Shown here piece after piece: positions 3,377 to 28,432 of a stretch of DNA of 64,000 nucleotides. The position numbers and the translations under genes are program-made. Origin of the DNA: Mesorhizobium sp. (GTDB taxonomy: Bacteria; Pseudomonadota; Alphaproteobacteria; Rhizobiales; Rhizobiaceae); the NCBI GenBank assembly GCA_051954615.1, contig JBQCHN010000096.1:17030-81029 (forward strand), in the 5' to 3' direction. Below the pieces are notes generated by a model. The model saw only the letters and a list, made by a program, of their open reading frames with translations, did no database searches and was not told the DNA's origin. Position 1 is the stretch's first letter. Each line of letters begins with the position of its first letter.

Positions 3377-3439
3377 TGTTGTGTCGTTTGGGATTCTGGT
3401 CGCTGCTGGATAAGGTCAATCTGCCGCTTGGATTATATG
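3377..3439 (+). repeat. candidate right-end transposase (TnsB) binding-site array
   Basis: Three similar sites: tgttgtgtCGTTtgGGATT (3377-3395), gtCGCTgctGGATAagg (3398-3415) and gcCGCTtGGATTat (3422-3439). They lie between the outside gene and the tnsA ATG at 3488. Confidence 0.35.
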
Positions 3440-3487
3440 AGGATTCCCTCAGGCGGCCAGTCTTGGGCTGCCGGGCGGCGTGCCGAT

Positions 3488-4429
3488 ATGAAGCTGTGCA
3501 TGAGTGAAAAAGCGCGGCCTGCACTAATAAATCCAATGAGGCAGCAAATGTATTCTGTGAGTTTAGAAGGTAATGGCGGACAATTTGAGAGAGATGAACC
3601 GTCTGCGCTTATTTCGATTGGAACGAGATCCGAGACTCCGGCCGCGGTCATCGTCTGGTCGGAAGATGGCGGCCCCTTGCGTCGCATTGTCAATGGACGT
3701 GCGCGCAAACCCACGGGAGTAGAGCCCTGTATGAAAGCTGGGGGCAGGGGAATGCCTTGGGAATCCGAAAAGGCTGAATTCCCGGCGCTATTGCTGGCCG
3801 AGGTGGGATCTCCGGTAATCGATCTACTCGCCCAGCCTCATCGATTGGAAATGTCAGTTGTTGGTCGGCGGCAGCGCATGGTCTATTTCCCAGATCTATT
3901 ACTAACCGTCGAGGAAGGCTTTCTGCATTTGCTGACGAAGGGTGTGCCCTTCGGCCGCGCCGTCGTTGAATGGAGACCTGATCCCCGCCGCTGTCCGCAT
4001 CCCAGCAAACTTGTCGTGGAAGTAAAGGACGACGCCGACGGCAGGATGAATGACCCAATCTATAGGGAGAAGCTACGCCTCGCCCGCGAGGTCTACGCTA
4101 TAGCTGGCTATAGCTTCATTCAGATAGTCCGTTCTGTCGACATCGACTGCGTTGACAGGCGAATTATCAACGACGTTCTGTTGGATAAGCGTACGGTCAT
4201 CACTGCAAGCGAAGTTGGGCGGGCGGTTCGTTACCTGCGTTCTCAAGGCGGCCGAGGAACATTGGGTGGCCTAATCGACGTGCTTGGTGGTGGAACGTTG
4301 GCGAGGGCTGTGGCGAAAGCCCTGCATGTGAGGCGCATTTTATCAATCGATCTCACAGGTCCTCTCCAGCACTCAAGTTGGGTGTGGCTCATTCGGCCCT
4401 ATGGGTTGGAGGGATGCTATGCGAACTAA
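3488..4429 (+). CDS. tnsA: TnsA-like transposition endonuclease
   Basis: The motif set WESEKAEFPALLLAEVGSPV..LAQPHRLE..YFPDLLL..VVEVKDD matches the TnsA restriction-endonuclease-fold N-domain. The track ORF starts at 3353, but ATG 3488 sits downstream of the putative end sites. Confidence 0.85.
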   Translation: MKLCMSEKARPALINPMRQQMYSVSLEGNGGQFERDEPSALISIGTRSETPAAVIVWSEDGGPLRRIVNGRARKPTGVEPCMKAGGRGMPWESEKAEFPALLLAEVGSPVIDLLAQPHRLEMSVVGRRQRMVYFPDLLLTVEEGFLHLLTKGVPFGRAVVEWRPDPRRCPHPSKLVVEVKDDADGRMNDPIYREKLRLAREVYAIAGYSFIQIVRSVDIDCVDRRIINDVLLDKRTVITASEVGRAVRYLRSQGGRGTLGGLIDVLGGGTLARAVAKALHVRRILSIDLTGPLQHSSWVWLIRPYGLEGCYAN

Positions 4430-6689
4430 GATCGATGCGAAGATAGGGGAGACATACGTCTTCGTCCATGATGAGCCGAACCGATTGTATTGGCTGAAAG
4501 CTGTTACACCGAAAGGCAAATTTGTATTCTTTGATGAAGGTGGACATAGGAAGACCGTTGATCCCGTCGCATTCGAGCGAATGCGCGGCGATGGCCATGC
4601 CCGGCGTGTCCACCGCACGGGGATCACCGAAAGGGGTTTGCTTCCTCGGCACATCAATCCAAGCGTATTTATGGATCCCGCAGAAGACGCCAAATCACAG
4701 GGCGAAATCAACCGACGCAGAAAAGATGCGCGGACCCTCGATGAAGCCAGGACGCTCTATTTTTACACCAAACTGCTTGCTGAAAGCCCGGGTGTAACCT
4801 TCCACGTACCTGCCTTGCAGAGATTTATCGACGATAACTGCGCAGATGCTGAGGCAGAAGGACTGTATTGGAAACCCTCCCCCAGTGCGTTGAAGCGAGT
4901 TATCGATAAACACGGAGGTAAAGCAGAAGGCATTACGTTTGCTGCGATCTATGACCAGCGGAGGAAATGGTCACCAAGACAATGCTGGGATTCGCCGATC
5001 GTGAAAATGCGCAACAAAGTCGTGAAGTTCTATTGGTCGGATCGAGAACCGCCCTGCACCCTCACGGAAGCGCACGCATTTTTCTTCGCCACGATGATCA
5101 GGCTCAACAGGCGGCGTATCCGAGCAGGAATGGAGCCGTATAAAGTTCCGGTCCCTCAGACAGTTACCAACTGGATCGCGAAAGCGAATTCTAAGGCGAA
5201 TTTTGCTAGGCGGCATGGCCCCGATGAAGCAAGGCGCAAGATGGGCGCACGCGGACGCTCTACGGAGGTAAGCAGAGCGCTTGAGGTCGTTTTGATGGAC
5301 AATACTCAGGTGGATGTGTGGGCTGTCGTGCGTTCACCTGACGGGCAGATTATCGACCGCGTCAGACCGTGGCTGACTCTTGCCGTTGACGTCTATTCTC
5401 GGATGATTGTCGGCGTGCATCTTTCACTTGAGCCGGCGTCGCTGTCATCGGCTCTGGAATGTCTGAAACAGGTGGTGCGCCGTAAGGAACAGTTGATCAA
5501 GCGCTTTCCTGAATGTCCGGAAGCGGCAGACTGCTGGGGTCGAGTAGGCACCCTTATTGTAGATAACGGGTTAGATTTTGCGGCGCTGAGTTTCAGGGTT
5601 GCATGCGAATATGCCGGCATATCGCTTCGTTTCGCACCGGTGCGCACCCCCGAGTACAAGGGGATCGTCGAAAGGACATTTGGCACTCTTAACACCAGCC
5701 TCTGGCACCGACTTCCTGGGGGCATAGCTGAGACACCACAGGAGAGATCAAGGCTGCGCAAGGATCCTCGAGACCATGCTCATTTCACAGTGGAGGAACT
5801 CGAGCATCGCATGTGGGGCACCATAGTCCCGATACTCGGAATGAGTCCGCACACCCAGACCGGAGTTGCTCCCGCTAAACGCTTCTTCGAGAGTATTCGT
5901 GCCCACGGTCGGCCGACAGTGGACGATATTAGTTCTTTCGATGCAATTCTAGGGCAAACGAAGCGGTGCCTCCTCACCGCTGAAGGTATTCGATTCGACA
6001 ACCACAGATTCCACGATCCCGTCCTAACTAGCGAGTTGCTTGAGGACATGCTGTCGGATGCCAAAGAACGAGGACAGAGGAAGGTCGGTTCTTCCGCCAC
6101 CGTGTGGGTCTGGGCTCTAGCAACGCGGGAGGATTGCAGCCAGGCGATCGTGTATAATACTAAGAGGAAGGAGGCCGTGAGGCTTCCAAACTGGGACCCG
6201 GACATTCGGCCCTTAACTTCGTACAAGGAGGCATCGCTCCAAAGAGCACACAAGGATGCCGCGAACGAAGCCTATTTCTCCAGTGACGATCGGTGGCTCG
6301 CCCGAGACAGGGAGAGACGATCCCGTGAGGTTCCCAAGGCGAGAAAGCTACCTCGGAAGCCAAGAGAATTCTCCGAGATTGTACCTGCTGGCGGATTGCA
6401 GTTGATAGATGGAGCCGTAATCGAGGAGCGCTCGGTCGCACCGTCTGTCTCGGGGAGTCGCCCTGTCGATGTTCCGGGACGCATGCCCTTACACGAGCGG
6501 GTCGATGATCTCATTCCTCCGAAGGACCAACCAAGAGGGCGGGCGTCTTCCCGTAAGAGGAAGGCCGTCCGTGCCGCACCTAGAGGAAATGATGCGCTGC
6601 CGTTAGATAATATAGCTCCTGTACGCCCCTCTCAGTTCCGCATAGATGACCCAACCGCTTTTATGGCAAGTCTCGAGAGTGGAAAATGA
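4419..6689 (+). CDS. tnsB: TnsB-like DDE (retroviral-integrase-fold) transposase
   Basis: DDE triad context: LMDNTQVDVW, LIVDNGLDFAA, KGIVERTFGTLN. ATG 4419 is preceded by GGAGGG. The gene overlaps the tnsA stop (4429). Confidence 0.9.
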   Translation: MRTKIDAKIGETYVFVHDEPNRLYWLKAVTPKGKFVFFDEGGHRKTVDPVAFERMRGDGHARRVHRTGITERGLLPRHINPSVFMDPAEDAKSQGEINRRRKDARTLDEARTLYFYTKLLAESPGVTFHVPALQRFIDDNCADAEAEGLYWKPSPSALKRVIDKHGGKAEGITFAAIYDQRRKWSPRQCWDSPIVKMRNKVVKFYWSDREPPCTLTEAHAFFFATMIRLNRRRIRAGMEPYKVPVPQTVTNWIAKANSKANFARRHGPDEARRKMGARGRSTEVSRALEVVLMDNTQVDVWAVVRSPDGQIIDRVRPWLTLAVDVYSRMIVGVHLSLEPASLSSALECLKQVVRRKEQLIKRFPECPEAADCWGRVGTLIVDNGLDFAALSFRVACEYAGISLRFAPVRTPEYKGIVERTFGTLNTSLWHRLPGGIAETPQERSRLRKDPRDHAHFTVEELEHRMWGTIVPILGMSPHTQTGVAPAKRFFESIRAHGRPTVDDISSFDAILGQTKRCLLTAEGIRFDNHRFHDPVLTSELLEDMLSDAKERGQRKVGSSATVWVWALATREDCSQAIVYNTKRKEAVRLPNWDPDIRPLTSYKEASLQRAHKDAANEAYFSSDDRWLARDRERRSREVPKARKLPRKPREFSEIVPAGGLQLIDGAVIEERSVAPSVSGSRPVDVPGRMPLHERVDDLIPPKDQPRGRASSRKRKAVRAAPRGNDALPLDNIAPVRPSQFRIDDPTAFMASLESGK

Positions 6690-7708
6690 TTTCCATCTTC
6701 AAGCCGCCAACCGACGGTCAGATACTTTCTGCCTTCGACGAGATGTTGATCTGCCACAAGAGAGCGCAACAGGCACAGTCAATATTTGACTCCCTGAGGG
6801 AGGCCAAACGCTTATCGCCAAACACGCCTAAGAATTGGGTCGCGCTCTTCGCTCCAAGCTTTAGCGGAAAAACCCGGGCCGTCATGCTCTACATGGAACG
6901 CGTGATAGATGACGCGATCGCATCGGGTCGCTTCCCGCCGGAAATGACAAGAAATGAAATCGGAAAGGCTCAGACCAAAGTCATCTACCTCTCCATTCCG
7001 TCATCGAACGTTACTCAGAAGACGGTAATCACGATGTTGCTCGCGCGGTTGGGCGATCCGCTACCGGACAAGGGGAATACCGGCCAGCAGTTACAGCGCC
7101 TCTATGAGTTGATGCATAAGCTCGGCGTGGAGTTGGTGATCCTGGACGAGATGCAGCACTTGAGCGCAGCGATGCGCGAAGGGGCGCGGTCGCGCTCGAA
7201 GGATGGTCAGTACGCTCCGATTCCATATTTGATCAAGACGCTCCTCGATAACGGCCATGTTCCGATAGTTTGCATCGGGATAACTGAAGGAAGGAGTCAC
7301 TTGATGAGCAACAATGAACTCAGAAATAGATGCTTTAAGGAGTTAGATTTCTTACCAATTAAACCAGATAGCATTGATATGCTGGAAGTACTCGCGAAAT
7401 ATTTTGGAATGCTTGCGAATAAAATTGTTGAATATGGGCTTTTCCCGGATGTTCCTGATTTTATTTCTGGCGAGATCCCGGATTGTTTTGTGGATGTGTC
7501 GGGCGGCAAGATCGGTGAAGCCACTATGTTGGCACGAAGCGCCTGCTGTTTCGCAGCTCATCGAGGAGCGCGTTGCGTGGAATATGAGGACCTCGAAGCC
7601 GCTACGGACGAGGCGATTGCTGCAGGTAAGGTCAAGATCAATTTTTTCCGTCTGCGCAGGGAGAAGAAGGAGAGGGAAAGGGAACGGGAACTGGAAATGG
7701 CGGGATGA
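6686..7708 (+). CDS. tnsC: TnsC/TniB-like AAA+ transposition ATPase
   Basis: Walker A APSFSGKTRAV and Walker B LVILDEMQHL. There is a 4-nt overlap with tnsB and with tniQ. Confidence 0.88.
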   Translation: MISIFKPPTDGQILSAFDEMLICHKRAQQAQSIFDSLREAKRLSPNTPKNWVALFAPSFSGKTRAVMLYMERVIDDAIASGRFPPEMTRNEIGKAQTKVIYLSIPSSNVTQKTVITMLLARLGDPLPDKGNTGQQLQRLYELMHKLGVELVILDEMQHLSAAMREGARSRSKDGQYAPIPYLIKTLLDNGHVPIVCIGITEGRSHLMSNNELRNRCFKELDFLPIKPDSIDMLEVLAKYFGMLANKIVEYGLFPDVPDFISGEIPDCFVDVSGGKIGEATMLARSACCFAAHRGARCVEYEDLEAATDEAIAAGKVKINFFRLRREKKERERERELEMAG

Positions 7709-9714
7709 GTGGCTTGGCGGGAGAGTCTCAACGTGCAACTCGTGCACCCGGCATGGTTGAGGCCGTCTGGGACCGTGGACATCTCGCGATCCCGATTGCA
7801 CCCCTTCCGGGCGAAGGGCTTGCTGAGATGATTGTCCGCGCAACGGCCGAGAACAGCTACGGATGTTGCGCGACGATCACGAACGCTCTCGGGATCCGTG
7901 GAAAGCTCCCTGTTGGGTTGGCGACAAGATTTCAAGCGCGAGAAAAGGCGTTGGCTTCCTTGCTCGGTATTCCAGGCGAAGGCGAAAGCTTGAGGAGCCT
8001 ATTGTACCTACCGATGGAAGCGCGCACGGGTTGGCAATCGTTTTTTGGTACTTCCATACGGCAGATTTACCGTGAGGTTGCCGGGCGGCGCGTTTCGCCG
8101 CGAGCGTTGGCAATCTCCCCACATCTTAGGGCGATCTGGTCTGTTCGAATTTTCCCTTTCGATCCTCTAACCAAGGAAATGTTGATCAATCGATGCCCAG
8201 TTTGCTCCAAGTCCTTCGGATGGGCGAGGACGCGCGGGACTGTCTATTGTGATCAATGTCTGTCCATAGACGACCATGGTTGCGAACGAGGCATAGTCGA
8301 TCTGCGCGATTTTCCACAGCCTTTGGTAGATGAAAAGCATTGGGCTAAATTGGATATTCTGACGGGTCTTATTGATCCAGATCAGAGCATTCGCGCGGAT
8401 TTCAATCCACAGCTTCCTGAGGTTTTCAGGGTCTTTGATCGCGGCGAAATTTTTGAATTTGCGGTAGCGTTGGGATCCGCATTCGAGGGTCCGAGCAAAT
8501 CGCAATCATGTTATCTTAGCCGTGCTGCCAATAAGGAACAATGTTTGCGCTTTACGCCGGCCGCTCTGGCTAAGGTCGCAACAGCGCTCTTGGATTGGCC
8601 TGCAACATTCAACTCTGCAGTGGAAGCAACTCGAAATGACGCTTGGAACGATGCCGGCAACCTCCGGTGGCGAACGGTCTTTGGCTCATTCGCGCAACTA
8701 GCTATAGATCGCTTCATCCATCCTGGCCTGCAGAAATTGGTTCGAGGGGAGTTGGAACGGCACCTCGTGGGTTATCATAGTGAGATGCCTAGAATGAAGG
8801 GCGGTGTGAAGCGCCAAGATATGAACGCAGTTCCTATCTGCGTCGCCAGTGAAATCCTCAAGACGTCAAGGACGAGGATTAGCAGGCTGGTAAAACGCAA
8901 GAGGGTTTCCGCCATCACAACTGGCACGTCATCGAAGGCGTCTGTCCTCGTGTCGGTGCCACGGATCGCCGCTATCATCGCTGCAGATGCCGAACTCGTT
9001 TCAGTGGAAAGTGCAGCTTCCCGCTTGGGGCTTCCTGGGCTTGCTATACTTTCCCTAGTGGAGGACGGATTGTTGAGAAAGGGAGTCAACCATGAGGGCC
9101 AACACGTAGCTAAAACCGTAGCACGATGTTCGATAGACGAGTTGATTCGTACATTAGATGAGCGGCTGTGCCATTCTGCACCGCCGCCGAGAGTTCTCTC
9201 TCTTTTTTCTGCAGCCATCCTACTGGGTTCTCCCCGATCGAATCCTTGGCCTGACCTTCTGCAGTTGGTAATCCGGAAAAAGGTGACCGCATGGAAACGA
9301 AGGCTGCAGGGACCGGTGTCATCCTGCATCGCTGTCAATTTGAACGAAATAGAAGACCGGATAAGTTTGAAGAGACCATGGGCTTGTAAGGGCGACGCGA
9401 CTATATCTCACCGGGATGCCATCAGATTGCTGGGAACTAACGGAATGGTCCTGTATGCATTGTTTGACGCTGGTATACTCCCGCGCAAACTTCTGCTGTC
9501 CCATCTTCAGGCGTTTTCCAGTTCAAACGTCCTTACTGGGGAATTGCTGGATCAACTCACTGCCCGCGATATCTCGACGGTTCCCTACGCATTGATTCAA
9601 CATCTCCAAAAGCGAGGATTGCACGCCACCTCGGTGAAACGCGGCCTCGTGAGGCGCTGGATTTGGCCGCGTGCGAAAGCGGAAGCTGCCATAGGACATA
9701 TTTTAGTTGCCTAG
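7705..9714 (+). CDS. tniQ: TniQ/TnsD-family target-selection protein (669 aa)
   Basis: N-terminal TniQ pattern IPIAPLPGEGLAEMIVRATAEN and zinc module CPVCSKSFGW..YCDQC. Fourth gene of the overlapping tns operon. Confidence 0.85.
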   Translation: MSGLAGESQRATRAPGMVEAVWDRGHLAIPIAPLPGEGLAEMIVRATAENSYGCCATITNALGIRGKLPVGLATRFQAREKALASLLGIPGEGESLRSLLYLPMEARTGWQSFFGTSIRQIYREVAGRRVSPRALAISPHLRAIWSVRIFPFDPLTKEMLINRCPVCSKSFGWARTRGTVYCDQCLSIDDHGCERGIVDLRDFPQPLVDEKHWAKLDILTGLIDPDQSIRADFNPQLPEVFRVFDRGEIFEFAVALGSAFEGPSKSQSCYLSRAANKEQCLRFTPAALAKVATALLDWPATFNSAVEATRNDAWNDAGNLRWRTVFGSFAQLAIDRFIHPGLQKLVRGELERHLVGYHSEMPRMKGGVKRQDMNAVPICVASEILKTSRTRISRLVKRKRVSAITTGTSSKASVLVSVPRIAAIIAADAELVSVESAASRLGLPGLAILSLVEDGLLRKGVNHEGQHVAKTVARCSIDELIRTLDERLCHSAPPPRVLSLFSAAILLGSPRSNPWPDLLQLVIRKKVTAWKRRLQGPVSSCIAVNLNEIEDRISLKRPWACKGDATISHRDAIRLLGTNGMVLYALFDAGILPRKLLLSHLQAFSSSNVLTGELLDQLTARDISTVPYALIQHLQKRGLHATSVKRGLVRRWIWPRAKAEAAIGHILVA

Positions 9715-9730
9715 ATTGACAGGGAAGTCC
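9703..9730. repeat. repeat family copy A (TTAGTTGCCTAGATTGACAGGGAAGTCC), contains the tniQ stop codon
   Basis: Matches 19965-19992 at 26 of 28 positions in direct orientation. It fills the 17-nt gap between the convergent tniQ and the 841-aa gene. Confidence 0.8.
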
Positions 9731-9731
9731 G

Positions 9732-12257
9732 CTAATTCGTTAGACGACTCTCGTCGGCATCCTCCGGATCACTAATCAAGTCGAGTGTCCAGGTGTTTTG
9801 GACCGTGTCATAACACGCTTCAAGTGACTGCAGTTGTGACGAAATCTGGTTTCTCTCTAAAGGCCGCCCGAGTTTATCTTCCGCCGCAGTCAAAATTTCA
9901 GTGAGCGTCAAAGGCTTTGAACTCTCTCCCATTATTGCGGCGACAACATCATGCAAACTCTCTCTTCGCGGTGATCCCCATTCTGTCAAATAAAGATAAC
10001 GGCCAGTGCTGACTCGCATACGGTCGTCGGAGGTTGAGAGGCTGAAGAAGGCGGTGACGGTCAATCCTGATGCTTTCAAAGCAGCCGATCTTTCCATCTC
10101 CGAATAATGCAAGCCTGCGCCACGAGTTCGAAGAAGGTGCACTACTCCGTCCAGCAATCGACGTTGGTCCGCTCTCTTTATCGGCACGTCTCGATCATTT
10201 AGCCCCCACACGCCCGGAGCAGTTCTGATCACCGGATCGATAGAGAAAATCTGGAAGAGCTTGTCTACACCGCGCGATGCCATCACGCGCTCCCGAAGCT
10301 CTTTGGTTGTAAGCGGCCCCCCAGCATTCTCTAGAGCCGCAATGGTCGCTTGTCGGATGTCGATCCGAAACTTATCATCCTGTCCATCCTTGATGTCCAG
10401 CGTCCACACGAGACGCCCGAGTCGCTCTACACCCCCAATGCGTTTTAGCGCGATATCCAGCAAGTACTTGTCGAACCTTTCTGCGTCTGGGATGTCACGC
10501 TCGGAGAGTTCAGCAACCAACTCCGACGTGTGCCATTGGCGGCCTCGTGGGCCCTCCGCGATAATCTGCTCTGCTTCCTCTGCAATCCTTAGCATCGTGT
10601 CCGCATCAACGACGACGTGCTTGTCGAGGCCATATGTGCCACGCCCGAACAGAAGGCCCACATTGGCCGCAGCGTTGTGAGCACGTCTGACGTCAAGATT
10701 GTGAGAAAAGCTCTGCGCAACTAGCTCGGGTAATTCTGAGTAGTGGAGCGGTCTATCTGAGGATGAGAGGGTCGCGTATACGAGATTTTCGGCAGATTTC
10801 CCGAAACTTGTGAGAATGCGGCCCTCAACGGTTTCGGTGAATTGAGCGTCGCGGGTGGCGGTTTCCCACAACAACTCGCGAAACTCGCGGCATTGATCTG
10901 GCAACAGCGGTAAGATCACGGATCTGCAATGCTCGTGCGACCAATTGTGGTCTGCGCCGTCATCAAGCAAGCGTCGAGAGGCAGAGACGGCGTCTTCCCA
11001 CTCACTTTGCCGCATTGCACCCAAGTATTGGACGCCATCAATTTCGATAACTCGTATTGGCGTAGATGCAACGTGTTCCAAAAGATACGCGAGGGTTTCT
11101 AAGTGATCGGCAATTCCAGAGAACCAAGCATCTGCAGCCTCCAGACCATGTAAGGGGATGGGCATAATCCGCTCTCTGATGATCTGGTCCACTCGGTGTG
11201 CCAACTCGTCATCCCAAGTCTCTAACTTGATGATGCGAGCAACCATCTTCGATTCAACTTGGCGAATGCGTTCACGAGTGACGCCAAAGCGTTCCCCGAG
11301 TTGTTGGAGGGTTTCAGCGGTGCCCCCATATCCCATACGACGGATAACAATCTCTCTTTGCCTTTCGGAGAGTGTAGCCAAGGACGCATCCAGCGATTCT
11401 AACAACGTCGACCATCGACGAACTTCATTTTTGTGAGAGTCGACGTCGCCCGATGGGCTACCGTAACTGTCTTCTGGGCCCCGATCCAACGCGGACATCA
11501 GAGAAGAGAACAGGTCCCAAGCAGATTTGCGCCCGAAATTCTGCATGTGCAGAAGGTCGTCAAGCGATAGTGACGCAAGATCGCCAATAGTCTTAATATT
11601 TTTCACGCTGAAGACGTTCGCCACTCGCACCGTTACATCGATCGACTCGACGGTTCGTTCGCTTAGCCAAGGCGGTGCGGCGCGGGCCACGCTGCATGGG
11701 TCTTTAGCTTCTCCAGTTAACATCTGCCCGAACCTGAAGAGCCCGAGATCGTGCCGAAGAGTGCGGGGTAACTTATGTTCAAAGTCCAGATAACTGGCCT
11801 CGTTGAATATGCCAAACTGGCGAAGCTGCTCCTCTCGATCCGCAAACTTCACAAGGAAACGGCGCACCCACCCGTCCGGGGACCATTCTTGGGCTTGCTG
11901 AACAGGAGTTGACGCGGGGCGAATCTTGTCCTCTAGTTCGTAGCCCCAGCCGCGCAAAGCTAGGTAGATTGGGATTCCTGCAACTTTCCCGAGAGACGTA
12001 GAGGAAGAGACAAACCCGGATGGCAGTCCATACTTTGCTGATTCAGTCAGCAGCAGATGGCCAGCGTGTTCACTGACAATCTCCTCAAAGTCGCGAGATG
12101 GAGGCCGGGAGAACCCAACGTGGAGCACGCCGACGCTAGCATCCGGCGATGGACGAGATTTCCAACTTTCGAGCAACTCTTCCAATTCACGATGGACGGT
12201 AACGGTCCATTCGGCATCATGCCGAAGCATCAAAAATGCCCGCAAAGGAATAGTCAT
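9732..12257 (-). CDS. 841-aa multi-domain DNA-binding protein: RNAP alpha-CTD-like HhH + sigma-70 region 4 HTH + several HARE/winged-helix modules
   Basis: Alpha-CTD-like segment: VRVANVFSVKNIKTIGDLASLSLDDLLHMQNFGRKSAWDL. Sigma r4-like segment: LSERQREIVIRRMGYGGTAETLQQLGERFGVTRERIRQVESKM. Repeated PL(T/H)..EL....wHTH-like segments occupy the C-terminal half. The start overlaps the upstream stop (TAATG). Confidence 0.8.
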   Translation of the reverse strand: MTIPLRAFLMLRHDAEWTVTVHRELEELLESWKSRPSPDASVGVLHVGFSRPPSRDFEEIVSEHAGHLLLTESAKYGLPSGFVSSSTSLGKVAGIPIYLALRGWGYELEDKIRPASTPVQQAQEWSPDGWVRRFLVKFADREEQLRQFGIFNEASYLDFEHKLPRTLRHDLGLFRFGQMLTGEAKDPCSVARAAPPWLSERTVESIDVTVRVANVFSVKNIKTIGDLASLSLDDLLHMQNFGRKSAWDLFSSLMSALDRGPEDSYGSPSGDVDSHKNEVRRWSTLLESLDASLATLSERQREIVIRRMGYGGTAETLQQLGERFGVTRERIRQVESKMVARIIKLETWDDELAHRVDQIIRERIMPIPLHGLEAADAWFSGIADHLETLAYLLEHVASTPIRVIEIDGVQYLGAMRQSEWEDAVSASRRLLDDGADHNWSHEHCRSVILPLLPDQCREFRELLWETATRDAQFTETVEGRILTSFGKSAENLVYATLSSSDRPLHYSELPELVAQSFSHNLDVRRAHNAAANVGLLFGRGTYGLDKHVVVDADTMLRIAEEAEQIIAEGPRGRQWHTSELVAELSERDIPDAERFDKYLLDIALKRIGGVERLGRLVWTLDIKDGQDDKFRIDIRQATIAALENAGGPLTTKELRERVMASRGVDKLFQIFSIDPVIRTAPGVWGLNDRDVPIKRADQRRLLDGVVHLLRTRGAGLHYSEMERSAALKASGLTVTAFFSLSTSDDRMRVSTGRYLYLTEWGSPRRESLHDVVAAIMGESSKPLTLTEILTAAEDKLGRPLERNQISSQLQSLEACYDTVQNTWTLDLISDPEDADESRLTN

Positions 12258-14619: not shown

Positions 14620-14623
14620 CTGA

Positions 14624-18293: not shown

Positions 18294-18419
18294 GATTATT
18301 GCGACAAGGCGGAAATCCGACGACGAGGGGCAATCAGGTATGTTTCTCGGATATTGGGTCAGTGAATTCGATGCTACCCGATCGTCTCGGGCGGATGAAA
18401 TTTTTGGTTGGAGATCGCC

Positions 18420-19964: not shown

Positions 19965-20068
19965 TTAGTTGTCTAGATTGACAGGGAATTCCTGCCCGAC
20001 CGCTTTGGGGCGGCGGAGTTGGGAAAGCGGCCATTCGGCTGGCCGTCGTATTTCGACGGCAACGCGCC
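19965..20068. repeat. repeat family copy B (28-nt motif plus 78-nt extension)
   Basis: 19965-19992 matches 9703-9730 at 26/28. 19991-20068 matches 24368-24445 at 60/78 ungapped, by my own column count. Confidence 0.75.
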
Positions 20069-20166: not shown

Positions 20167-21060
20167 TCACTTGCGGAATCGGGGAGTCCAGCTTTCGATC
20201 AGCGCGTCTTCGTCATCGTCTTCAGGCTCGGCCTCAGAGCGCATGCTGAGCGACTTGCACGTCAGAATCGTCAGAGTACGCCCGTACTGCCCAAGTCCGA
20301 CCACCTCTTCGGTGATGCGATAGTTGCCGCCGCCGCCCATCCAGTCACTCAACCGTCTCTGGCCCTCGTCGCGTTGACCTGTACGCACGTTCTCGGGGCT
20401 GGCATTAAACTGCGCCGTAATGGTGCCTGAGGGAACGCCGATGCCCTTTCGCAGGTAGGTCAGTCCCTTCGCCTGCTTGAGGCCATCAGACATGAAGCAC
20501 CAGTCAACGGCGTCGCCTGTCGTGCAGATGACTGCAACACCGTCTGATGTAAGGGTGCAGTATCGGATGGCGGTCGCCGTCAACGACGTTTCGCATTCTT
20601 TTCGCAGCGCCTCGACGCAGGCCAAGCCCGCATCCCGATCCGCAATCGCTTTCTTGAACGGCGCTTCCGGCATGAGAAGAGCGGCTGCGAAGTGATCCGC
20701 CTCTTGTTCAAAAGGATCACCTGACACGAAGCCCGCGCGTGATTGATGAACACCCGTCGTGAGCAGCGCTTCGGGGTGTCCTTCAATGAAGTAGTGTCCC
20801 AGCTCGTGGCTGATGCTGAACCTCTGAAAGCCACGGCTGGGAATGTTCGTTGCGTACATGATGCCGAAATCATCACCGGCTTTGATCAGCATACCCGAGA
20901 CGCCTGAAGCTGTGTCAGGCTTAGGCCGCACCATGATCCCCTTCGTGGCAGCGATTGCCTCGGGGTCGACCCACAGTCCTTCAACCTTCATCTGCCGAAG
21001 CACTGCATTGGCAGCAGCCTCAGCCAGAGTACGACGTGCGAGCCGCGGTTTCGTGTTCAT
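20167..21060 (-). CDS. ImmA/IrrE (M78) zinc metalloprotease, CapP-like
   Basis: HELGHYFIEGH motif. ATGA overlap with the upstream XRE gene. Confidence 0.85.
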   Translation of the reverse strand: MNTKPRLARRTLAEAAANAVLRQMKVEGLWVDPEAIAATKGIMVRPKPDTASGVSGMLIKAGDDFGIMYATNIPSRGFQRFSISHELGHYFIEGHPEALLTTGVHQSRAGFVSGDPFEQEADHFAAALLMPEAPFKKAIADRDAGLACVEALRKECETSLTATAIRYCTLTSDGVAVICTTGDAVDWCFMSDGLKQAKGLTYLRKGIGVPSGTITAQFNASPENVRTGQRDEGQRRLSDWMGGGGNYRITEEVVGLGQYGRTLTILTCKSLSMRSEAEPEDDDEDALIESWTPRFRK

Positions 21061-21410
21061 TCGCTTGCCTTCGTACCTCTCTGCTTGGCCAGGAGGCCCA
21101 CGAAATCCGTTGCGAGCTTCAGGTCTTCCTCGGTGAGCCTGCTCAGGTCGCGGTGAAGGCGGCCGACTGTTTCTGCTGAGGCCTGAGGCGTATCGGATCG
21201 ACCAAGCAAATAGTCGGTGGTCACATTGAGGGCCGAAGCCAAGGCTTTGAGATTGTCGAACGACGGTTTCCGCGGGCCCGACTCGAAATGAGACACCGAA
21301 GCAGCTGGAAGCCCGGCTTTGGCAGCAAGTTCGGCCTGATTCAGGCCACGGAGTTTGCGGGCGTCTTTGAGACGTTCTTTAAAAATATCAGTGGCTTGGG
21401 TTTCTGGCAT
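21057..21410 (-). CDS. XRE-family HTH repressor, CapH-like
   Basis: LRGLNQAELAAKAGLPAASVSHFESG. ATG 21410 is preceded by GGAAG, while the track start at 21506 adds an implausible His-rich leader. Confidence 0.8.
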   Translation of the reverse strand: MPETQATDIFKERLKDARKLRGLNQAELAAKAGLPAASVSHFESGPRKPSFDNLKALASALNVTTDYLLGRSDTPQASAETVGRLHRDLSRLTEEDLKLATDFVGLLAKQRGTKASE

Positions 21411-21431
21411 GGTGCTTCCGATATGGATAAC

Positions 21432-21475
21432 TTGACGTTTCCGCCATTCCGAGTCAACATCATGGTGATCATGGT
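21432..21475. promoter_or_regulatory. candidate operator in capH-like / Ubl-operon divergent promoter
   Basis: TTGAC (21432-21436) N16 GTCAA (21453-21457), followed by the tandem ATCATGGT GATCATGGT (21459-21475). Confidence 0.35.
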
Positions 21476-21484
21476 AATTATGCC

Positions 21485-21772
21485 ATGGCGGAATCGCATG
21501 GCGCAAGCCAGAAACCTATGGGGCCAAAGATGGCAAAGAATGACAGGTGTGTCGTCCGGCACGGCAACGACTGGGCGGTGAAGAAGGGCGGCGTGGCTGC
21601 ACCGGAAAGCATCCACCACAAGCAAAGTCGCGCCGAGCAGCAGGCGAAATCGATCGTACGTGATCTCGGAGGCGGGGAAGTTCGCATCCAGGTGCGCGAC
21701 GGAAAGTGGCGTGACTCTGACACTGTCGCCCCGGCGCATGATCCGTTTCCGCCACGCGACAAGAAACACTAA
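21485..21772 (+). CDS. DUF2188-family small protein (start may be ATG 21530)
   Basis: VVRHGNDWAVKKGG...QAKSIVRDLGGGEVRIQVRDGKWRDSDT..DPFPPRD is the typical DUF2188 pattern. Confidence 0.7.
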   Translation: MAESHGASQKPMGPKMAKNDRCVVRHGNDWAVKKGGVAAPESIHHKQSRAEQQAKSIVRDLGGGEVRIQVRDGKWRDSDTVAPAHDPFPPRDKKH

Positions 21773-21789
21773 CGAATAGGAGAAGAGAA

Positions 21790-22113
21790 ATGGCGAACAA
21801 CAATCAAGGTCAAGGTAGCGACAAGGGTGGCGGTCAAGGCGGTGGCAATCCCGGCCAAGGCGGTGGCGGCAACAACGAGATCACCATCCACATCGACAAG
21901 AAGCAGTTCAAGTCCGCGAGCCCCACGACCGGAGCGGCGCTCTACACGCTCGGCCAGGTCGCCGCGGGTTACGATCTGTGGCGCGAGGTTCACGGTAAGG
22001 GCGATGACGAACTTATCGCGAACAATGCCACACAGGTGATCCTGAAGAATGGTGACCACTTCTATACCGCACAGTCCTCGCTGAACCCGGGCGCTGGCCA
22101 TGTCAATGGCTGA
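21790..22113 (+). CDS. ubiquitin-like beta-grasp protein (multiubiquitin-family single domain) with Gly/Gln/Asn-rich N-tail, ends in Gly
   Basis: ITIHIDKKQFKS..TGAALYTLGQV...VILKNGDHFYT. The final codons read HVNG then stop. Overlaps the next gene by 14 nt. Confidence 0.75.
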   Translation: MANNNQGQGSDKGGGQGGGNPGQGGGGNNEITIHIDKKQFKSASPTTGAALYTLGQVAAGYDLWREVHGKGDDELIANNATQVILKNGDHFYTAQSSLNPGAGHVNG

Positions 22114-22495
22114 TGTAGAAGAACTCTTGCCGGAGGCTGATCGGGATTTTCTGGTCGCCGCCGGCTATGAGCACACGATCGAACGGGTCGGGAACCACGT
22201 CCATATCGTCATCAAGAATTTCCCGTTGCCACGTTACAAGCCGCAGAGCGCTGATCTGCTGATCAGGGTGAAGAACGGTTACCCGAATGCGAAGCTGGAT
22301 ATGTTCTGGACGTATCCAGACGTGTCGCTACCAAGTGGCGGCGTCCCGCTAAAAGCAGACGTTCATGAGCAATACGGGGGCCGCAATTGGCAGCGTTGGT
22401 CCCGGCATATCGCCGACGGAAAATGGCGTCCGGGTGTCGATAACTTGCGGTCGTATCTCACGACGGTGAAAACAGAGCTGGCGAAGGGGGTTTGA
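22100..22495 (+). CDS. prokaryotic E2/UBC-fold protein (family-E-like), contains no cysteine
   Basis: HIVIKNFPLP..YKPQSADLLIRVKNGYPNAKLDMFW is an E2-like core. None of the 131 residues is Cys. Confidence 0.7.
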   Translation: MSMADVEELLPEADRDFLVAAGYEHTIERVGNHVHIVIKNFPLPRYKPQSADLLIRVKNGYPNAKLDMFWTYPDVSLPSGGVPLKADVHEQYGGRNWQRWSRHIADGKWRPGVDNLRSYLTTVKTELAKGV

Positions 22496-23874
22496 TGCGC
22501 TACTCCGTCACCTTTCTCGAGCATGATTACGAGGTCTTGGAAAAACATTTGGCGGCCACTACCGATGAGCAGGCCGCGTTTTTGATTTGTAGGATTGCGC
22601 AGACCGAAGGCGAGACCAGGCTTTTGGTCCGGGAGTTGTTGCCGGTGACCGGCGAAGACGTCATCGAGCAGTCTCCTGTCCACATGGAGATCGCGCCGCG
22701 CGCCTACACACGCGCCATGAAGCACGCCAATGACGAAAAATCCTGCCTTCTCTTCGTCCACTCCCATCCGAACGGCTACGCGGATCATTCCGCTCAGGAC
22801 GACGTCGAGGACGCAAAACTCTTCAAGACCGCTTATACGCGTATTCGCACGCCTGGCGTTCATGGGTCGTTGGTGCTCACACCGCAAGGACTCTCCGGTG
22901 CGCGCGTTTGGCTGCCGGATGGAGCGAGCGCTTCGATCGAACGCATTCGTATTGTTGGCAGACGCGTGAGGTTTTGGTTTTCACAGCAGGGCGCGACCGA
23001 AATCCCCACATTCTTCGATCGTCAAGTCCGGGCTTTTGGCCCAGACATTCAGCGCCTGTTATCGCGCCTGCGGGTTGGCATTGTCGGCCTTGGCGGCACT
23101 GGATCTTCCGTCCTTGAACAACTTATCCGCCTTGGAGTCGGCACGATCTACATCTCCGACGGAGAGCGTTTTGAATCCTCGAATGTGAACCGCGTCTACG
23201 GGTCCCGCGTCATCGATGACACGCTCCCCAAAATCAAGATCGCACAGCGCCTGGCGGCGGAGATTGGATTAGGCACGAAGGTCGAGCTCATTGATAAGCC
23301 GATCTCATATCAATCTGCGCTCAAGACACTCCGGGATTGCGATATTGTATTCGGCTGCACGGATGACGAGCTTGGTCGTTCGCTCCTGAACACCTTCGCT
23401 ATCTACTACTACATCCCGGTCTTTGACATGGGCGTCAAAATCGACTCCGACGAGGGTGTTATTCGGTCCATCAATGGGCGGGTCACAACGCTGGTTAATG
23501 GAGCCGCCTGCTTGCATTGCCGGGGCAGAGTTTCTGCCGAACGCATCGCAGCTCAGGCCGAATGGGAAGCTGACCCCGAGGGCGCGCAGGCCCTTCACGA
23601 TGAAGGCTATCTGCCGGAACTCGGGGACCCTGCTCCGGCTGTGGTGGCTTTCACAACCACGGTCGCAGCAAGTGCAGTGTCCGAATTTCTGCACCGTCTC
23701 ACCGGCTTTATGGGACCGGAGCGCGAAAGCACGGAAGTCTTGCACCTGATCGACCAAACGTTGGTTCGGACCAATCGGGTTGCCTCGCAGCATGATTGCT
23801 TCTGCGCGGATAAGTACCATTGGGGTCGCGGCGATGTGCGCCCTTTCCTCGACACGACATGGCGGGCTGAATGA
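22492..23874 (+). CDS. JAB/JAMM peptidase fused to ThiF/E1-like adenylyltransferase
   Basis: JAMM motif HSHPNGYADHSAQD. E1 nucleotide loop VGIVGLGGTGSSVLEQL. Cys pairs CLHC and CFC. Confidence 0.88.
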   Translation: MMRYSVTFLEHDYEVLEKHLAATTDEQAAFLICRIAQTEGETRLLVRELLPVTGEDVIEQSPVHMEIAPRAYTRAMKHANDEKSCLLFVHSHPNGYADHSAQDDVEDAKLFKTAYTRIRTPGVHGSLVLTPQGLSGARVWLPDGASASIERIRIVGRRVRFWFSQQGATEIPTFFDRQVRAFGPDIQRLLSRLRVGIVGLGGTGSSVLEQLIRLGVGTIYISDGERFESSNVNRVYGSRVIDDTLPKIKIAQRLAAEIGLGTKVELIDKPISYQSALKTLRDCDIVFGCTDDELGRSLLNTFAIYYYIPVFDMGVKIDSDEGVIRSINGRVTTLVNGAACLHCRGRVSAERIAAQAEWEADPEGAQALHDEGYLPELGDPAPAVVAFTTTVAASAVSEFLHRLTGFMGPERESTEVLHLIDQTLVRTNRVASQHDCFCADKYHWGRGDVRPFLDTTWRAE

Positions 23875-24206
23875 AGAAACTGATTGCCTATCTCAGACGT
23901 CTTTGGCTTCGGTTTCGTCGCCGTCATGAGATCGCATCGATTGTTCAGGTCAGCAGTCGCTCGGAGCTTCCCACTAAACTAGGGACCTCTCTCTACCTCG
24001 TTGGCGATCCACCGAAATGGGCAGTCCTAAAATGCCCTTGCGGTTGTGGTGACACAATCGACGTCAACCTCATGAAGGTGCGCAGTCCTGCCTGGCAGTT
24101 ATCGGTTGTCGACGGGAAAGTGAGCTTTCATCCGTCTTTATGGATGCCCAAAGACAAATGCGGTGCGCATTTCTGGATCAAAAATGGGAAGATTACCTGG
24201 GTTTGA
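23871..24206 (+). CDS. DUF6527-like small Cys-cluster (probable zinc-binding) protein
   Basis: LKCPCGCGDTIDVNL...KDKCGAHFWIKNGKITW. 4-nt overlap with the E1 gene. Confidence 0.7.
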   Translation: MKKLIAYLRRLWLRFRRRHEIASIVQVSSRSELPTKLGTSLYLVGDPPKWAVLKCPCGCGDTIDVNLMKVRSPAWQLSVVDGKVSFHPSLWMPKDKCGAHFWIKNGKITWV

Positions 24207-24332: not shown

Positions 24333-24445
24333 TAGTTCGACGGGAAGGACCGAGATGGGGGTGGTATCCCGCCCGACGGCTTCTGAGCGGCTAAGCTGGG
24401 ATAGCCGCCGTTCAAGTGGCAGCCATACTTCGACGGCAACGCGCC
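24333..24445. repeat. repeat family copy C (degenerate motif plus 78-nt extension)
   Basis: TAGTTCGACGGGAA (24333-24346) compares with TAGATTGACAGGGAA in copy B. 24368-24445 matches 19991-20068 at 60/78. Confidence 0.65.
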
Positions 24446-24869: not shown

Positions 24870-27587
24870 TCACCAATTTTTCCCGTAGGAAAGATCCTTG
24901 TGGTTCAGAAGATTTGGAAGTTCAGGCCCCTGACATGTGAGGCCGAGGAAGGTCGCGGCGCGCGTTGCGCCGACGTAGATATACCGATCAAAAAGGTCAG
25001 GCTGTTCGGCATAGAGGCGATCGACATCAATGAAGAACACCGCCTCGAATTCGAGCCCCTTGATATGTTCGATCGGGAAAACTCTGACATCGTGCGTCTG
25101 ACCTATCGCCTCGCCCTCTGAATAGGCTTTGGCCATGAGGCTCATGTCGGACAATTCAGTGTTAAGCGCTTCGGTCAGCGAATTCAGCGCGCTGCGGTTT
25201 GGAACAAGAACGGCAATAGTAGGTAGCTTGCCGTCGGTAGCGCGCTCAATTTCAGCTATCCGCGCCTTGAGCCAGCGCGCCCGCTCAGCATCAGAACCAA
25301 GGGACAAGCCCAGCACCGGATCAAAACCCAGGTTGTCGATAAACTCAGGAGGGCGATCGTCGACTTCAGCGCCCTGGAGGCGCGCAAGTGTGCGGGCAAA
25401 ATCGCCCAGCTTTTGGCTCTGGCGGTAGCTGATGGAAATTCGGTGTATGTCGAGCGTGGGAGCAAACCATTTCAGATCGGCTTCCGTACGGCTACCCCAA
25501 CGCGTGAGCCGTTGGTTGAAGTCGCCAGAAAGAAACAACGATCCGACTTCTAGCCGAGCAAGCTCGGCCATGCACGCGAGTTGCACGGGCGAGAAATCTG
25601 TTGCCTCGTCTACCAAGACTTGGTTGCGTCGCAAGCGTGAAATGGCATCCAGAAGTGCCGGGCGGTTCTCAGACAGTCTTGCGGAGAGCACGCGATTGGA
25701 TTCGATGAAATTTGCCGCCCTCAGCAATGCCAGCATGATCACGTCAACTTCCGCGGGGTGCACATGGGCAGCGGCACTGGAACCTGAACCGTACCATTTG
25801 CCTTCCGCGCGCATTGCGCGCCTGAAGCGCTGGTAGCGGGTAGGCATTCGCTGCAGATAGGTGGCTGGTGCGTTGCCGAGGCGGCTTGCCGCGCGCTGTA
25901 CCAGTAGGACGTTTCCTACTTCTCTAAGGTCTGGCGTATCCAATCCTCTCTCGGAAAGGAATACCAGAATTCGGCCGGCGCGGCTGCCGCCGGCTGGTTT
26001 ACTGCCAGTAGTTTGCCGAATGGCTAGCGTGCGCATTGCGCGGCGGAAAATCTCCACTACCAGTCTCCGCCCCTGCGGAGTGCGCCCAGAGCCTTCCGTT
26101 TCGACGGACTCGTCGTCAACGTCATCATCTTCGCCATCGACCTCGGGCTCTTCGGGCGATTGTTGCTGCAAGGCATCGACAAACCTGGCAAGTGCGTCCA
26201 GGAAGCCCGGATCGCGGACAGCAAAGGCACGGATCGGATAGTCCAGATCCTTGCGGGTCCTATCCCCCAGCGATGACGCCAGTTGTCCCAGCTCTCTGCG
26301 GAGGCCTGCGAGCTCAGCCAGCAATCTGATGACGTTGTCGCCGGAGCGCTGAAGTGTGTGAGAGACCTGCCGACCGAGCTCTTTTGCTCTCGCGTCGGTC
26401 GCTTTGGTCAAACGTTCTGCTTCCGTCTCCATTTGCTGGACGAAATTTCGCGCCTGCCAGCTGTTGAAGTCTTCGAACCAGGCCCGGTGGTTGAGCAGAG
26501 TATCTGGTACCAAATGATCGTCGTGGGCGTCGCGATCCATCACCAGACCGCCGCCAGCGCCGCGCCTGAGAATCCCCAGCTCGTTCCTAGCAGTTGCGAA
26601 ACGGAATGCCTCCCAGGTACGAAGGCGTTCGTCGTGCGCCGGTACGCCCTCTCGCCCCAGCGCCTCCTTGACATAGAGGCGCAATAGCTCTGTTGGCGTG
26701 AACAGGATCCAACTATTCGCGTGAGACCTTCCCGCCTCGTCGACCTCTTTCGCCAGTTCCTGTTCTTCTTCGTCGAGATATGCGAAGTCGAGCTTTTGCC
26801 GGAGTCGCCGGACCATCGTGGTGGTCTTTCCGGTTCCAGGCGGTCCCATCACAGCGATTTTGCTGTCGATCGGCAGACGGAATATCTCGTCCTGGAAGCG
26901 GTCGAGAATCGGGGCCACGCGGAGTTGCATTGCCGTCAGCACCCCGCGCGTGATGCCTACCGTAATATCCTCACCGTCAGTCTCTCCGAGCCACGGGGCT
27001 AGGGCATCGATCTCGTCATCGGCGACGCCGTCTTCCCGCAGCAGATCTCGCAGGGACCTGATCGTCAGCGGCGGCGCGCTTTCGCGAAAGTGTATTGCGG
27101 GCTGAGAATCCCACCCATCGCCGAGCTCCACCGCGCTGAAAGTCATCTTTTCGCGGATCAGGAAACTGTGCGTTGCCGCAGGCAACTTAACCTCTGCGTC
27201 CTCACCGACGCCGAAGGTGGCAAGTCGTCCCTTTGGTGCCATATAGCTGCACAGACGCACTTTGCCTGCACCGACTGTTTGGGCCGGCGAAATGTAAAGG
27301 GTCTCAAGCTTCTGATCTTCGTCTTCGATGACAAGGCGAGCTATTGCCGGCTCACGACGCAATCGTTGGAGATTGGCAACCGTGTCTGCGTTGCGCTGGT
27401 GCAAGTTGGAAACAAGCGCGTCGTAGGTAGCCGCGTTCACGCTGGCGAACGATTCCAAGGTTACCCCTTGGCTCTGTAGCCCGGCCTGTGCGTGAGCGGA
27501 AATCTCTCCAAAGCTGTCGAGCACTTCTCGTGCAGTGTTCCGCAGAGCGTTCCGATCGAACTCTTCATTCGTCCTGTCCACCCCCAT
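24870..27587 (-). CDS. UvrD/HelD-like SF1 helicase with GreA/B-C-like N-terminal domain
   Basis: Walker A VMGPPGTGKTTT, VLVDEATDFSP, and C-terminal GLEFEAVFF..YVGATRAATFLGL. The N-terminal SYMAPKGRLATFGVGEDAEVKLP resembles the Gre C-domain. Confidence 0.8.
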   Translation of the reverse strand: MGVDRTNEEFDRNALRNTAREVLDSFGEISAHAQAGLQSQGVTLESFASVNAATYDALVSNLHQRNADTVANLQRLRREPAIARLVIEDEDQKLETLYISPAQTVGAGKVRLCSYMAPKGRLATFGVGEDAEVKLPAATHSFLIREKMTFSAVELGDGWDSQPAIHFRESAPPLTIRSLRDLLREDGVADDEIDALAPWLGETDGEDITVGITRGVLTAMQLRVAPILDRFQDEIFRLPIDSKIAVMGPPGTGKTTTMVRRLRQKLDFAYLDEEEQELAKEVDEAGRSHANSWILFTPTELLRLYVKEALGREGVPAHDERLRTWEAFRFATARNELGILRRGAGGGLVMDRDAHDDHLVPDTLLNHRAWFEDFNSWQARNFVQQMETEAERLTKATDARAKELGRQVSHTLQRSGDNVIRLLAELAGLRRELGQLASSLGDRTRKDLDYPIRAFAVRDPGFLDALARFVDALQQQSPEEPEVDGEDDDVDDESVETEGSGRTPQGRRLVVEIFRRAMRTLAIRQTTGSKPAGGSRAGRILVFLSERGLDTPDLREVGNVLLVQRAASRLGNAPATYLQRMPTRYQRFRRAMRAEGKWYGSGSSAAAHVHPAEVDVIMLALLRAANFIESNRVLSARLSENRPALLDAISRLRRNQVLVDEATDFSPVQLACMAELARLEVGSLFLSGDFNQRLTRWGSRTEADLKWFAPTLDIHRISISYRQSQKLGDFARTLARLQGAEVDDRPPEFIDNLGFDPVLGLSLGSDAERARWLKARIAEIERATDGKLPTIAVLVPNRSALNSLTEALNTELSDMSLMAKAYSEGEAIGQTHDVRVFPIEHIKGLEFEAVFFIDVDRLYAEQPDLFDRYIYVGATRAATFLGLTCQGPELPNLLNHKDLSYGKNW

Positions 27588-28376
27588 ACTTCCCCCCTTT
27601 TATGAAATGGTCTATCTGCCCCACTGTCGGCTGAGCGTCAAAATCTTTCACAGATACCATTCAGTCCTTGCCCGTATGACCTGCGCGATGAGTTCGTCGA
27701 ACGCGGCGAGTGCGACGGGGCGGGTGCGGTATTCGCCGTTGACTGCTGCCGAAGGTCCGGGGCTCTGACTTCAGTGAACGAACGGGTAAATCTCTCGTAA
27801 CGGCAGATTAGTTCGCGATCGAGATCAAATATGTCCATGGGAAGTAAGCCTCATCCCCGCCCACCACTCGTCTAATGAATGTCCAGTGCACCCACCGCGG
27901 AGCAGATTTCTAACTCGCAACTCGCTTGGCACTGACCTTCCATCCGGCGGCAACCTGAATCTCAGTCGATATTAATACGCTGTGAGGCAGAGGGTCAGCA
28001 ACCGGCGGAGGCGCATGTGACCTCCGCTTCACACCTGCGGAGCGTCCGCTCTCGGGCAAAGGCGACACTTGACTGAATGTCCGCGATGAGGGTCGGAAGC
28101 GGACGCGGCATCTCTGAGCCGTCAACAGTCAACGGTAGCTAATCGACCTGGACACATCTCTGAAGCTGTGAGGCCTTGTTCCGGATTTGAAAACTCGTCG
28201 GATATGCAGCATCTTGACTGATTACACGGTCGTCTAACAGATGACGTGCGGCTGGGCTCTCATTCGGTCGGCCGAATCGCCGTTCTTTGGAAGCCAGAAT
28301 CGCTATTTTTCTTCAATTGAAGAAATATCAATAGCTTAGGCGATTCGCTTCAGTTTTGGGCCGACACATGTAGAGA

Positions 28377-28432
28377 CAAATCCTGAGCGGTTCAAAACCA
28401 AATCGGAGCGGCTAATAGCCAAATCACAACGG
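28377..28432. repeat. three tandem CAAATC-N3-4-(A/G)(G/A)CGG sites at 21-22 nt spacing; candidate left-end TnsB sites
   Basis: CAAATCCTGAGCGG (28377-28390), CAAATCGGAGCGG (28399-28411), CAAATCACAACGG (28420-28432). Confidence 0.4.

Follow-up and report, generated by a model that had tools for sequence, protein, structure and literature searches.

The stretch of DNA examined here, 64,000 nucleotides of Mesorhizobium sp. (the window; positions 17030-81029 of contig JBQCHN010000096.1, hereafter C96), contains the right-hand 28.4 kb of what is, with a probability that we put at roughly 85%, a single intact Tn7-like transposon of 39,759 bp inserted at a tRNA-Met gene (C96:5637-45395, window -11392 to 28366). 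The remainder of the element lies left of the window (locus L020); positions carrying the prefix C96 are therefore numbered over the whole contig, and all others over the window. The handles G, L and C stand for genomes, loci and contigs. An earlier note on the window had recognized a Tn7-like transposon with a tnsABC-tniQ core and stacked defence modules as cargo, as the family matches of both core and cargo genes bear out, and had given it a size of about 25 kb and ends at 3377 and 28432. These boundaries have to be abandoned, the left end being 14.8 kb further left and the right terminus at 28366.

The termini of the element read 5'-TGTCGGCTCAAA...TTTGGGCCGACA-3', and a perfect 5-bp duplication, CATGT, directly abuts both of them. 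The two termini make up an inverted repeat (C96 ~5630-5668 against window 28341-28372; score 33, z 7.8), and three exact copies of the 12-mer TGTCGGCYCAAA exist in the 4.64-Mb genome, two of which form this terminal inverted pair. It is the terminal inverted repeat, the 12-mer pair and CATGT on both sides that together delimit the element, which is present in the genome as one copy. Base composition follows the same outline: GC content is 49-60% inside the element as against 67-70% left of C96:5.4 kb, and to the left of the window it holds at 52-60% as far as about C96:5.5 kb, from where it climbs to 67-70%. The tRNA-proximal end is of the R type, opening with TGTCGGCTCAAATTGG followed by three 21-nt tandem units (GCGAACCGTTTCCAAAAA, the third degenerate). 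The far, tniQ-side end has homologues in the corresponding ends of six relatives (L039, L103, L104, L105, L107 and L101) and thus belongs to this tns machinery; in the relatives the conserved terminus reads TGAGYMGCCAAATC or TGTCGGC..., which corresponds to window 28300-28366, and its outer boundary is set by two genomes (G010 and G461) that retain a 3' fragment of tniQ and the end only, in other flanks. Several further candidates for an end were discarded. A scan with the loose motif CCGCTNNGGATTTGG (up to four mismatches) returned 267 matches on the contig and was uninformative; around a jump in GC content at 37.4-38.2 kb the genes are contiguous and nothing resembling an end was seen; and a match to the far end at 60626-60670 falls within an aminotransferase gene and is probably due to chance.

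Insertion is specific for both site and orientation. Contrary to the statement that neither glmS nor a tRNA gene adjoins either end, a tRNA-Met(CAT) gene is located at C96:5545-5620 and is followed after 16 nt by the left terminus (11 nt, CATGT and then TGTCGGCTCAAATTGG), the relatives being placed likewise, so that five elements are known at tRNA-Met, 8-16 nt past the 3' end of the tRNA. In another genome of the genus (G047, TnsB ~33% identical), a tRNA-Met of identical sequence, ending in CCA, is followed by 10 nt, CTTTG and TGAGACGACAAATC, and on the tniQ side ...GATTTGGCTACTCA is followed by CTTTG, a second perfect 5-bp duplication which flanks the termini TGAG...CTCA and encloses ~71 kb including the gene orfX (see below) and 60 kb of cargo. 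The genome closest to the analysed one, G455, carries the same R end (G047-type) 14 nt past tRNA-Met (L113), despite which no TnsB of the family was found in it. In G013 the tRNA-Met site is empty, and from 8 nt past CCA its sequence is that of the tniQ-side flank of L101 for 198 nt, apart from one 1-nt gap; in Bradyrhizobium niftali (L057, TnsB ~35% identical) TGTCGCGCCAAATTTGG occurs 15 nt past tRNA-Met and precedes four tandem units. From the ends read in these elements it follows that the end toward the tRNA is in every case the repeat-packed one, as it is in Tn7.

The same site receives other inserts. Most genomes of the genus carry one of a few other insert types downstream of tRNA-Met (loci L114-L141), one of which opens with three GGTTCGCCA repeats of 11-nt period that are probably integrase arm sites, and the tRNA-Met site of the genus is a crowded integration hot spot; it has been described as an attachment site of integrative and conjugative elements (ICEs) and integrative and mobilizable elements (IMEs) in Mesorhizobium (PMC8627217). 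Our literature search returned no paper on a Tn7-like element at tRNA-Met in this genus.

Four overlapping open reading frames (ORFs) at 3488-9714 encode the transposition proteins, as the earlier note had it, and their identities are now backed by matches to TnsB and TnsC and by ESM Atlas and Foldseek searches. TnsB resembles TnsB of Tn6677 (E 5e-27) and, weakly, that of Tn7 (E 4e-7), with further matches to TnsB of Tn7016 and ShCAST; its match to the Pfam rve family (26.8 bits) is weak and under the cut-off, and residues D294, D382 and E418 are invariant in an alignment of 22 homologues. For TnsA no Pfam match was obtained and the NCBIfam TnsA-like model gave E 0.0018, far under the family cut-off; the nearest ESM Atlas clusters carry PF08722 (Tn7_TnsA-like_N; 77% of members) at a score of 0.94 with 204 shared features, and the homologue in G047 is fused to TnsB. 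TniQ, likewise with no Pfam match, has four cysteines (C164, C167, C182 and C185) that are invariant in the family alignment, and in Foldseek each of the best eleven solved-structure matches of its model is a TniQ chain (probability 0.57-1.00, best E 3e-3). Neither Cas families nor TnsE were found when the cargo and tns ORFs were scanned with the Pfam, PADLOC and NCBIfam libraries, in line with the earlier note; within the window, no RNA family was matched, and no array-like direct repeats were detected between 3000 and 29000. The same ORF scans gave no TniR resolvase, and TnsA is present, which sets the element apart from the Tn5053/Tn402 (tniABQR) type. Since TniQ is a TnsD-like protein of 669 aa with C-terminal DNA-binding units, targeting would be protein-guided.

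We therefore propose a model in which TniQ would bind the tRNA-Met gene via its C-terminal winged-helix/helix-turn-helix (HTH) units and then recruit TnsC, with TnsA and TnsB cutting and pasting the element 9-12 bp downstream of the tRNA. The tns operon occupies the tRNA-distal side, reading outward, and orfX starts a first cargo bay reaching the tRNA-side end. The element has probably been active recently, and may still be so.

Divergent from tnsA stands orfX, a gene found beside tnsA in 9/9 related elements whose DNA was read and in only 1 of 36 other genomes of the genus, that one also carrying an element. Across elements whose TnsA, TnsB, TnsC and TniQ share only 25-50% identity, its products are 50-86% identical. 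The predicted protein begins with a long helix, continues through a disordered basic linker and ends in a winged helix whose sequence pattern is HARE-HTH-like; the model (pLDDT 81) has weak fold matches to generic winged-helix DNA binders including the RNA polymerase delta subunit, and the protein is a putative DNA-binding regulator. As the called product is of 157 aa, the start codon is likely near 3098. That orfX could be an external target gene had rested on its recurrence beside tnsA, its rarity in the genus and an apparent tracking of TniQ; this idea was rejected, as the duplications enclose orfX, and in a comparison of eight elements the correlation with TniQ (rho 0.44, against 0.50 with TnsB) revealed no special covariation. 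The intergenic region between orfX and tnsA, which includes 3377-3440 where the earlier note had placed the left end, is internal to the element and rich in GGATTC, as it is in every relative examined. It also holds one arm (3389-3418) of a second inverted match, whose other arm (27933-27964) is ~400 bp from the far terminus. The two arms agree at 27/30 nt (z 5.3, equalled in 0/300 shuffles), are both wholly inside the element and may be extra sites for TnsB or for a regulator.

That second inverted match could also mark inner ends, and it is among the observations that count against a single 39.8-kb transposon. The others are that a chance 5-bp match on both sides would be expected about once in 1000, that the assembly is fragmented (487 contigs) and, as far as the sequence alone shows, may be wrong within the 40 kb, that TnsA has no sequence match among solved structures, profile search included, that the TniQ model is of low confidence over its N-terminal 150 residues, and that no empty site matching the genome's own flanks was found when the DNA of either flank was searched against 40 relatives; nor does any of the readable tRNA-Met loci in other genomes of the genus run on into the right flank of the analysed one. 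Taking the inner match at face value, a 24.6-kb Tn7-like element (~3377 to ~27985) would be nested in, or in tandem with, an older tns-less island owning the outer ends at tRNA-Met, an arrangement in which tnsA would adjoin an end, as in Tn7. We regard it as improbable, since in six relatives it is the homologue of the outer far end that stands 0.15-0.25 kb from tniQ. Moreover, no duplication surrounds the inner points, the inner inverted repeat was not found in L039, the relative tested, the conserved end beside tniQ lacks an inverted partner in the DNA examined from five relatives, and relatives with no cargo after tniQ still have orfX and cargo on the tnsA side.

The 25-kb element of the earlier note, with tnsA next to the right end, cargo only after tniQ, and orfX and the genes to its left taken as flank or as a mark of the target, is very improbable. 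It would have the canonical Tn7 layout, and clusters of short GATT-containing repeats do occur at both 3377 and 28432; as inverted repeats, however, the two clusters give no significant alignment (score 14, z -0.6), and the 5-bp duplication that was to be sought, which CATGT provides at the true termini, is absent in every register at these positions. The constant company of orfX and tnsA among elements, and its near absence from the rest of the genus, likewise speak against orfX as flank, as does the inclusion of orfX and 60 kb of cargo in the G047 duplication. Between tnsA and the nearer end there intervene, in fact, this conserved divergent gene and 14 kb of cargo including a complete Lamassu system. 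As for the repeat cluster up to which the note had counted about 19 kb of genes other than those for transposition, such genes do fill ~18.6 kb between tniQ and the far terminus, but the cluster (28376-28434) is outside the CATGT duplication and is not an end of the element: its three tandem units begin 5 nt past the duplication and are thus flanking DNA, possibly an orphan end left at the tRNA-Met site by an earlier element, with a similarity to known R ends that is not significant (z ~2). The use of tRNA-Met by ICEs and IMEs, and the many genomes of the genus with integrase-type islands there, would also accommodate an integrase-type genomic island in which the tns operon is a passenger, possibly dead. 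This we hold to be the remotest of the readings considered, given that none of the ORFs scanned with the family libraries matched an integrase, that the ends consist of TGT...ACA, tandem 21-nt units and a 5-bp duplication and not of a duplicated 3' segment of the tRNA, and that the same type of end adjoins tniQ in relatives.

A single transposon at tRNA-Met also agrees with how its relatives are built. The TnsB family is rare: 5.8 billion proteins yield 39 clusters at E <= 1e-10, most of them from Alphaproteobacteria. In the genome contigs, a profile search gave family matches and a single-protein search gave none. In L039 (=G047), L101/L102, L103, L104, L105 and L107 the order is the terminus, ~0.15-0.25 kb of spacer, tniQ, tnsC, tnsB and tnsA in one direction, the divergent orfX and then cargo (BREX, DISARM-like and other genes), and L017, L018 and L019, whose far ends are outside the DNA read, have orfX beside tnsA too. 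A 14-mer match considered as the far end of L107 does not extend and is probably due to chance. The distance from tniQ to the terminus is thus ~0.15-0.25 kb in most relatives versus 18.6 kb here, and the closest relative, L017, has large YjiT/YjiV-like genes after tniQ; in these two elements a second cargo bay has opened between tniQ and the far end. In L057 it is tniQ, and not cargo, that adjoins the tRNA-proximal end, which implies that its tns module is inverted relative to the ends in comparison with the Mesorhizobium elements; the position of the module differs between lineages. The analysed element belongs to a rare alphaproteobacterial lineage of Tn7-like transposons in which the genes are arranged in a somewhat unusual way and one additional gene is conserved. 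It is tempting to go further and speculate on a distinct lineage defined by orfX as a fifth core gene, perhaps required, as regulator or co-factor, for transposition or for the expression of cargo, by two bays for cargo acquisition and by a tns module at either end relative to tRNA-Met, a proposal that we advance with considerable doubt. In some relatives the space between orfX and tnsA holds TnsB fragments and an additional TnsC-like gene (L039 9195-11204, L018 1272-1706), and decayed relatives are seen in small-genome Mesorhizobium (L053, G010:C186; L054, G461:C15; L113, G455:C9).

Among characterized systems, the Tn7-like defence elements of Benler et al. 2021 (PMC8649781) share with ours the TnsA/TnsB/TnsC/TniQ core, the 5-bp duplication, arrays of repeats at the ends and a cargo dominated by defence genes. 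These elements insert at a 'safe site' downstream of a tRNA gene and have a median size of 14-29 kb, reaching up to 140 kb (PMC8649781), a range into which 39.8 kb falls. In contrast to them, the tns operon is here away from the attachment-proximal end and reads outward beside the distal one, orfX heads the main bay and there are two bays. Type I-F3 CRISPR-associated transposons (CASTs; Tn6677, Tn7016) and their Cas-less relatives supply the solved structures that best match TnsB (5e-27), TnsC and the fold of TniQ; the element differs from them in that cas genes and a CRISPR array were not found, in its 669-aa TnsD-like TniQ and in low protein identity. Homing of the TnsD type to tRNA genes has been shown by experiment for CAST I-B2 and I-D (Faure et al. 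2023, PMC10293859); a large protein of the TniQ/TnsD family and insertion downstream of a tRNA gene at a short, constant spacing are the traits in common, whereas the target is tRNA-Met and not tRNA-Val or tRNA-Leu, an RNA-guided second pathway is lacking, and insertion occurs 9-12 nt past the 3' end of the tRNA as opposed to 30-33 nt for the I-D element (PMC10293859). With E. coli Tn7 (attTn7 at glmS) the element has in common a TnsA plus TnsB transposase, TnsC, a site-specific selector, TGT...ACA termini, the 5-bp duplication and a closely packed repeat end toward the recognized gene; unlike Tn7, it has no TnsE, is targeted to a tRNA gene and carries the tns genes at the other end, and its TnsB is similar to that of Tn7 at E 4e-7 only.

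The corrected map of a 40-kb mobile defence island and its target site makes protein-guided insertion at tRNA-Met a testable proposition. It shows that in Mesorhizobium the tRNA-Met site is contested between Tn7-like elements on one side and ICEs and IMEs on the other, and that one small, rare transposon lineage carries sets of defence genes (Lamassu, BREX, DISARM-like, Pbe-like and ubiquitin-like) from one soil alphaproteobacterium to another. A compact tnsABC plus tniQ set with defined ends and a 5-bp duplication is, in addition, a candidate tool for site-specific insertion in rhizobia.

The cargo comprises at least five anti-phage gene sets, distributed over the two bays (Table 1). The tRNA-side bay runs from the tRNA-side end to orfX and contains a complete Lamassu system, with LmuA effector, SMC-like ATPase LmuB and middle component LmuC in one operon, as well as large proteins with no assigned function. 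In the tniQ-side bay, the three modules that the earlier note had described as methyltransferase (MTase)/phospholipase D (PLD)-helicase/DndDE-like, CapHP plus ubiquitin-like conjugation and UvrD/HelD-like were recovered through matches to PbeA, PbeC, Type II MTase, CapP, Prok-E2_E, JAB plus ThiF, DUF6527 and a UvrD-like family. The Pbe-like operon matches PbeA at 1e-211 and PbeC at 6e-290; its 841-aa protein has sigma-70 region 4, alpha-CTD and HARE domains, neither this protein nor the 126-aa one matches a PbeB or PbeD model, and no dndA-E genes were found, an N6/N4 MTase being present in their place. CapH and CapP are known regulators of cyclic-oligonucleotide-based anti-phage signalling systems (CBASS), of which only CapP and its HTH partner are present here, a cyclase family being matched in no scanned ORF. 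The adjacent E2/JAB-E1 operon would be controlled by CapH/CapP, and its 107-aa ORF is, from size and position, possibly a ubiquitin-like protein.

Table 1. Position of the element's termini, genes and repeats. Strands refer to the window.
Feature	Position	Strand	Remarks
CATGT, left copy	C96:5632-5636		
IetA-like AAA ATPase and metallophosphatase	left of window, before Lamassu		
Lamassu system LmuA-LmuC-LmuB	C96:9525-13004, left of window		LmuA 2e-127, LmuC 2e-51, LmuB 6e-184; Pfam CTD6, MC2
SIR2-like gene	left of window, after Lamassu		
Cargo ORF, 3' part	1-827	+	~1300 aa, start C96:14002; no family match
Cargo ORF, 357 aa	1076-2149	+	no family match
Short dispersed repeat copy	2300-2440	no strand	degenerate partial copy at 28075-28110
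orfX	2628-3299	-	conserved family gene, divergent from tnsA
orfX-tnsA intergenic region	3300-3487	no strand	GGATTC-rich; internal, no duplication flanking
tnsA	3488-4429	+	Tn7_TnsA-like_N in nearest ESM Atlas clusters
tnsB	4401-6689	+	DDE transposase; solved-structure sequence matches
tnsC	6686-7708	+	AAA+ regulator; Pfam TniB PF05621 8e-14, above cut-off; VchTnsC 4e-6
tniQ	7705-9714	+	TnsD-like, 669 aa; CxxC...CxxC zinc ribbon, C-terminal tandem winged-helix/HTH units
28-nt repeat, copy A	9703-9730	+	spans tniQ stop codon; copy B at 19965-19992
Pbe-like operon	9732-18076	-	841-aa protein, 126-aa ORF, PbeC/DndD-like ATPase, PbeA PLD-helicase, Type II MTase
NYN + OST-HTH protein	18408-19193	+	family scan
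Gene scars	19385-19880	-	LysR substrate-domain (C-terminal) fragment next to insertion sequence (IS)-type transposase N-terminal HTH fragment
Repeat, copy B (28 nt + 79 nt)	19965-20068	+	copy C at 24367-24445
CapP + CapH regulator pair	20167-21506	-	M78 peptidase (CapP, 3e-62) and HTH protein (CapH)
Operon DUF2188, 107-aa ORF, Prok-E2_E, JAB-ThiF(E1) fusion, DUF6527	21485-24206	+	
UvrD/HelD-like helicase	24870-27587	-	905 aa
tniQ-side (L-type) end	28240-28366	-	terminus ...TTTGGGCCGACA stops at 28366
CATGT, right copy	28367-28371	no strand	sequence read
Three tandem units CCAAATCNNARCGG	28376-28434	+	21-22 nt period; outside right CATGT

The IS scars reported in the earlier note were confirmed as the LysR C-terminal and IS-type HTH fragments, which sit between two cargo modules. 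The repeat family by which it had the modules separated is real as well, with a further copy of the 28-nt/79-nt repeat on another contig (C363). A role of these repeats as sites of module capture was rejected, as they have no match to the spacers between tniQ and the end in relatives and occur on that other contig; they look like short repeats of the host. Together with the LysR and IS scars, they suggest a piecemeal, secondary acquisition of the tniQ-side bay.

To the right of 28.6 kb the DNA was described as richer in GC and metabolic, which agrees with its 58-61% GC and its GntR regulator, ABC transporter and FGase genes. The GntR/ABC-transporter/FGase/DUF1989 block at 28620-37700 compares in this respect with 66-67% GC for the xanthine-dehydrogenase-like genes at 38-41 kb, and as no orthologous match to it was obtained in the 40 relatives, it may be older accessory DNA at the hot spot. 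Finally, the short repeat in the tRNA-side bay (2300-2440) is dispersed in Mesorhizobium, with copies of 73-79% identity in four other genomes (G001, G007, G011 and G022).

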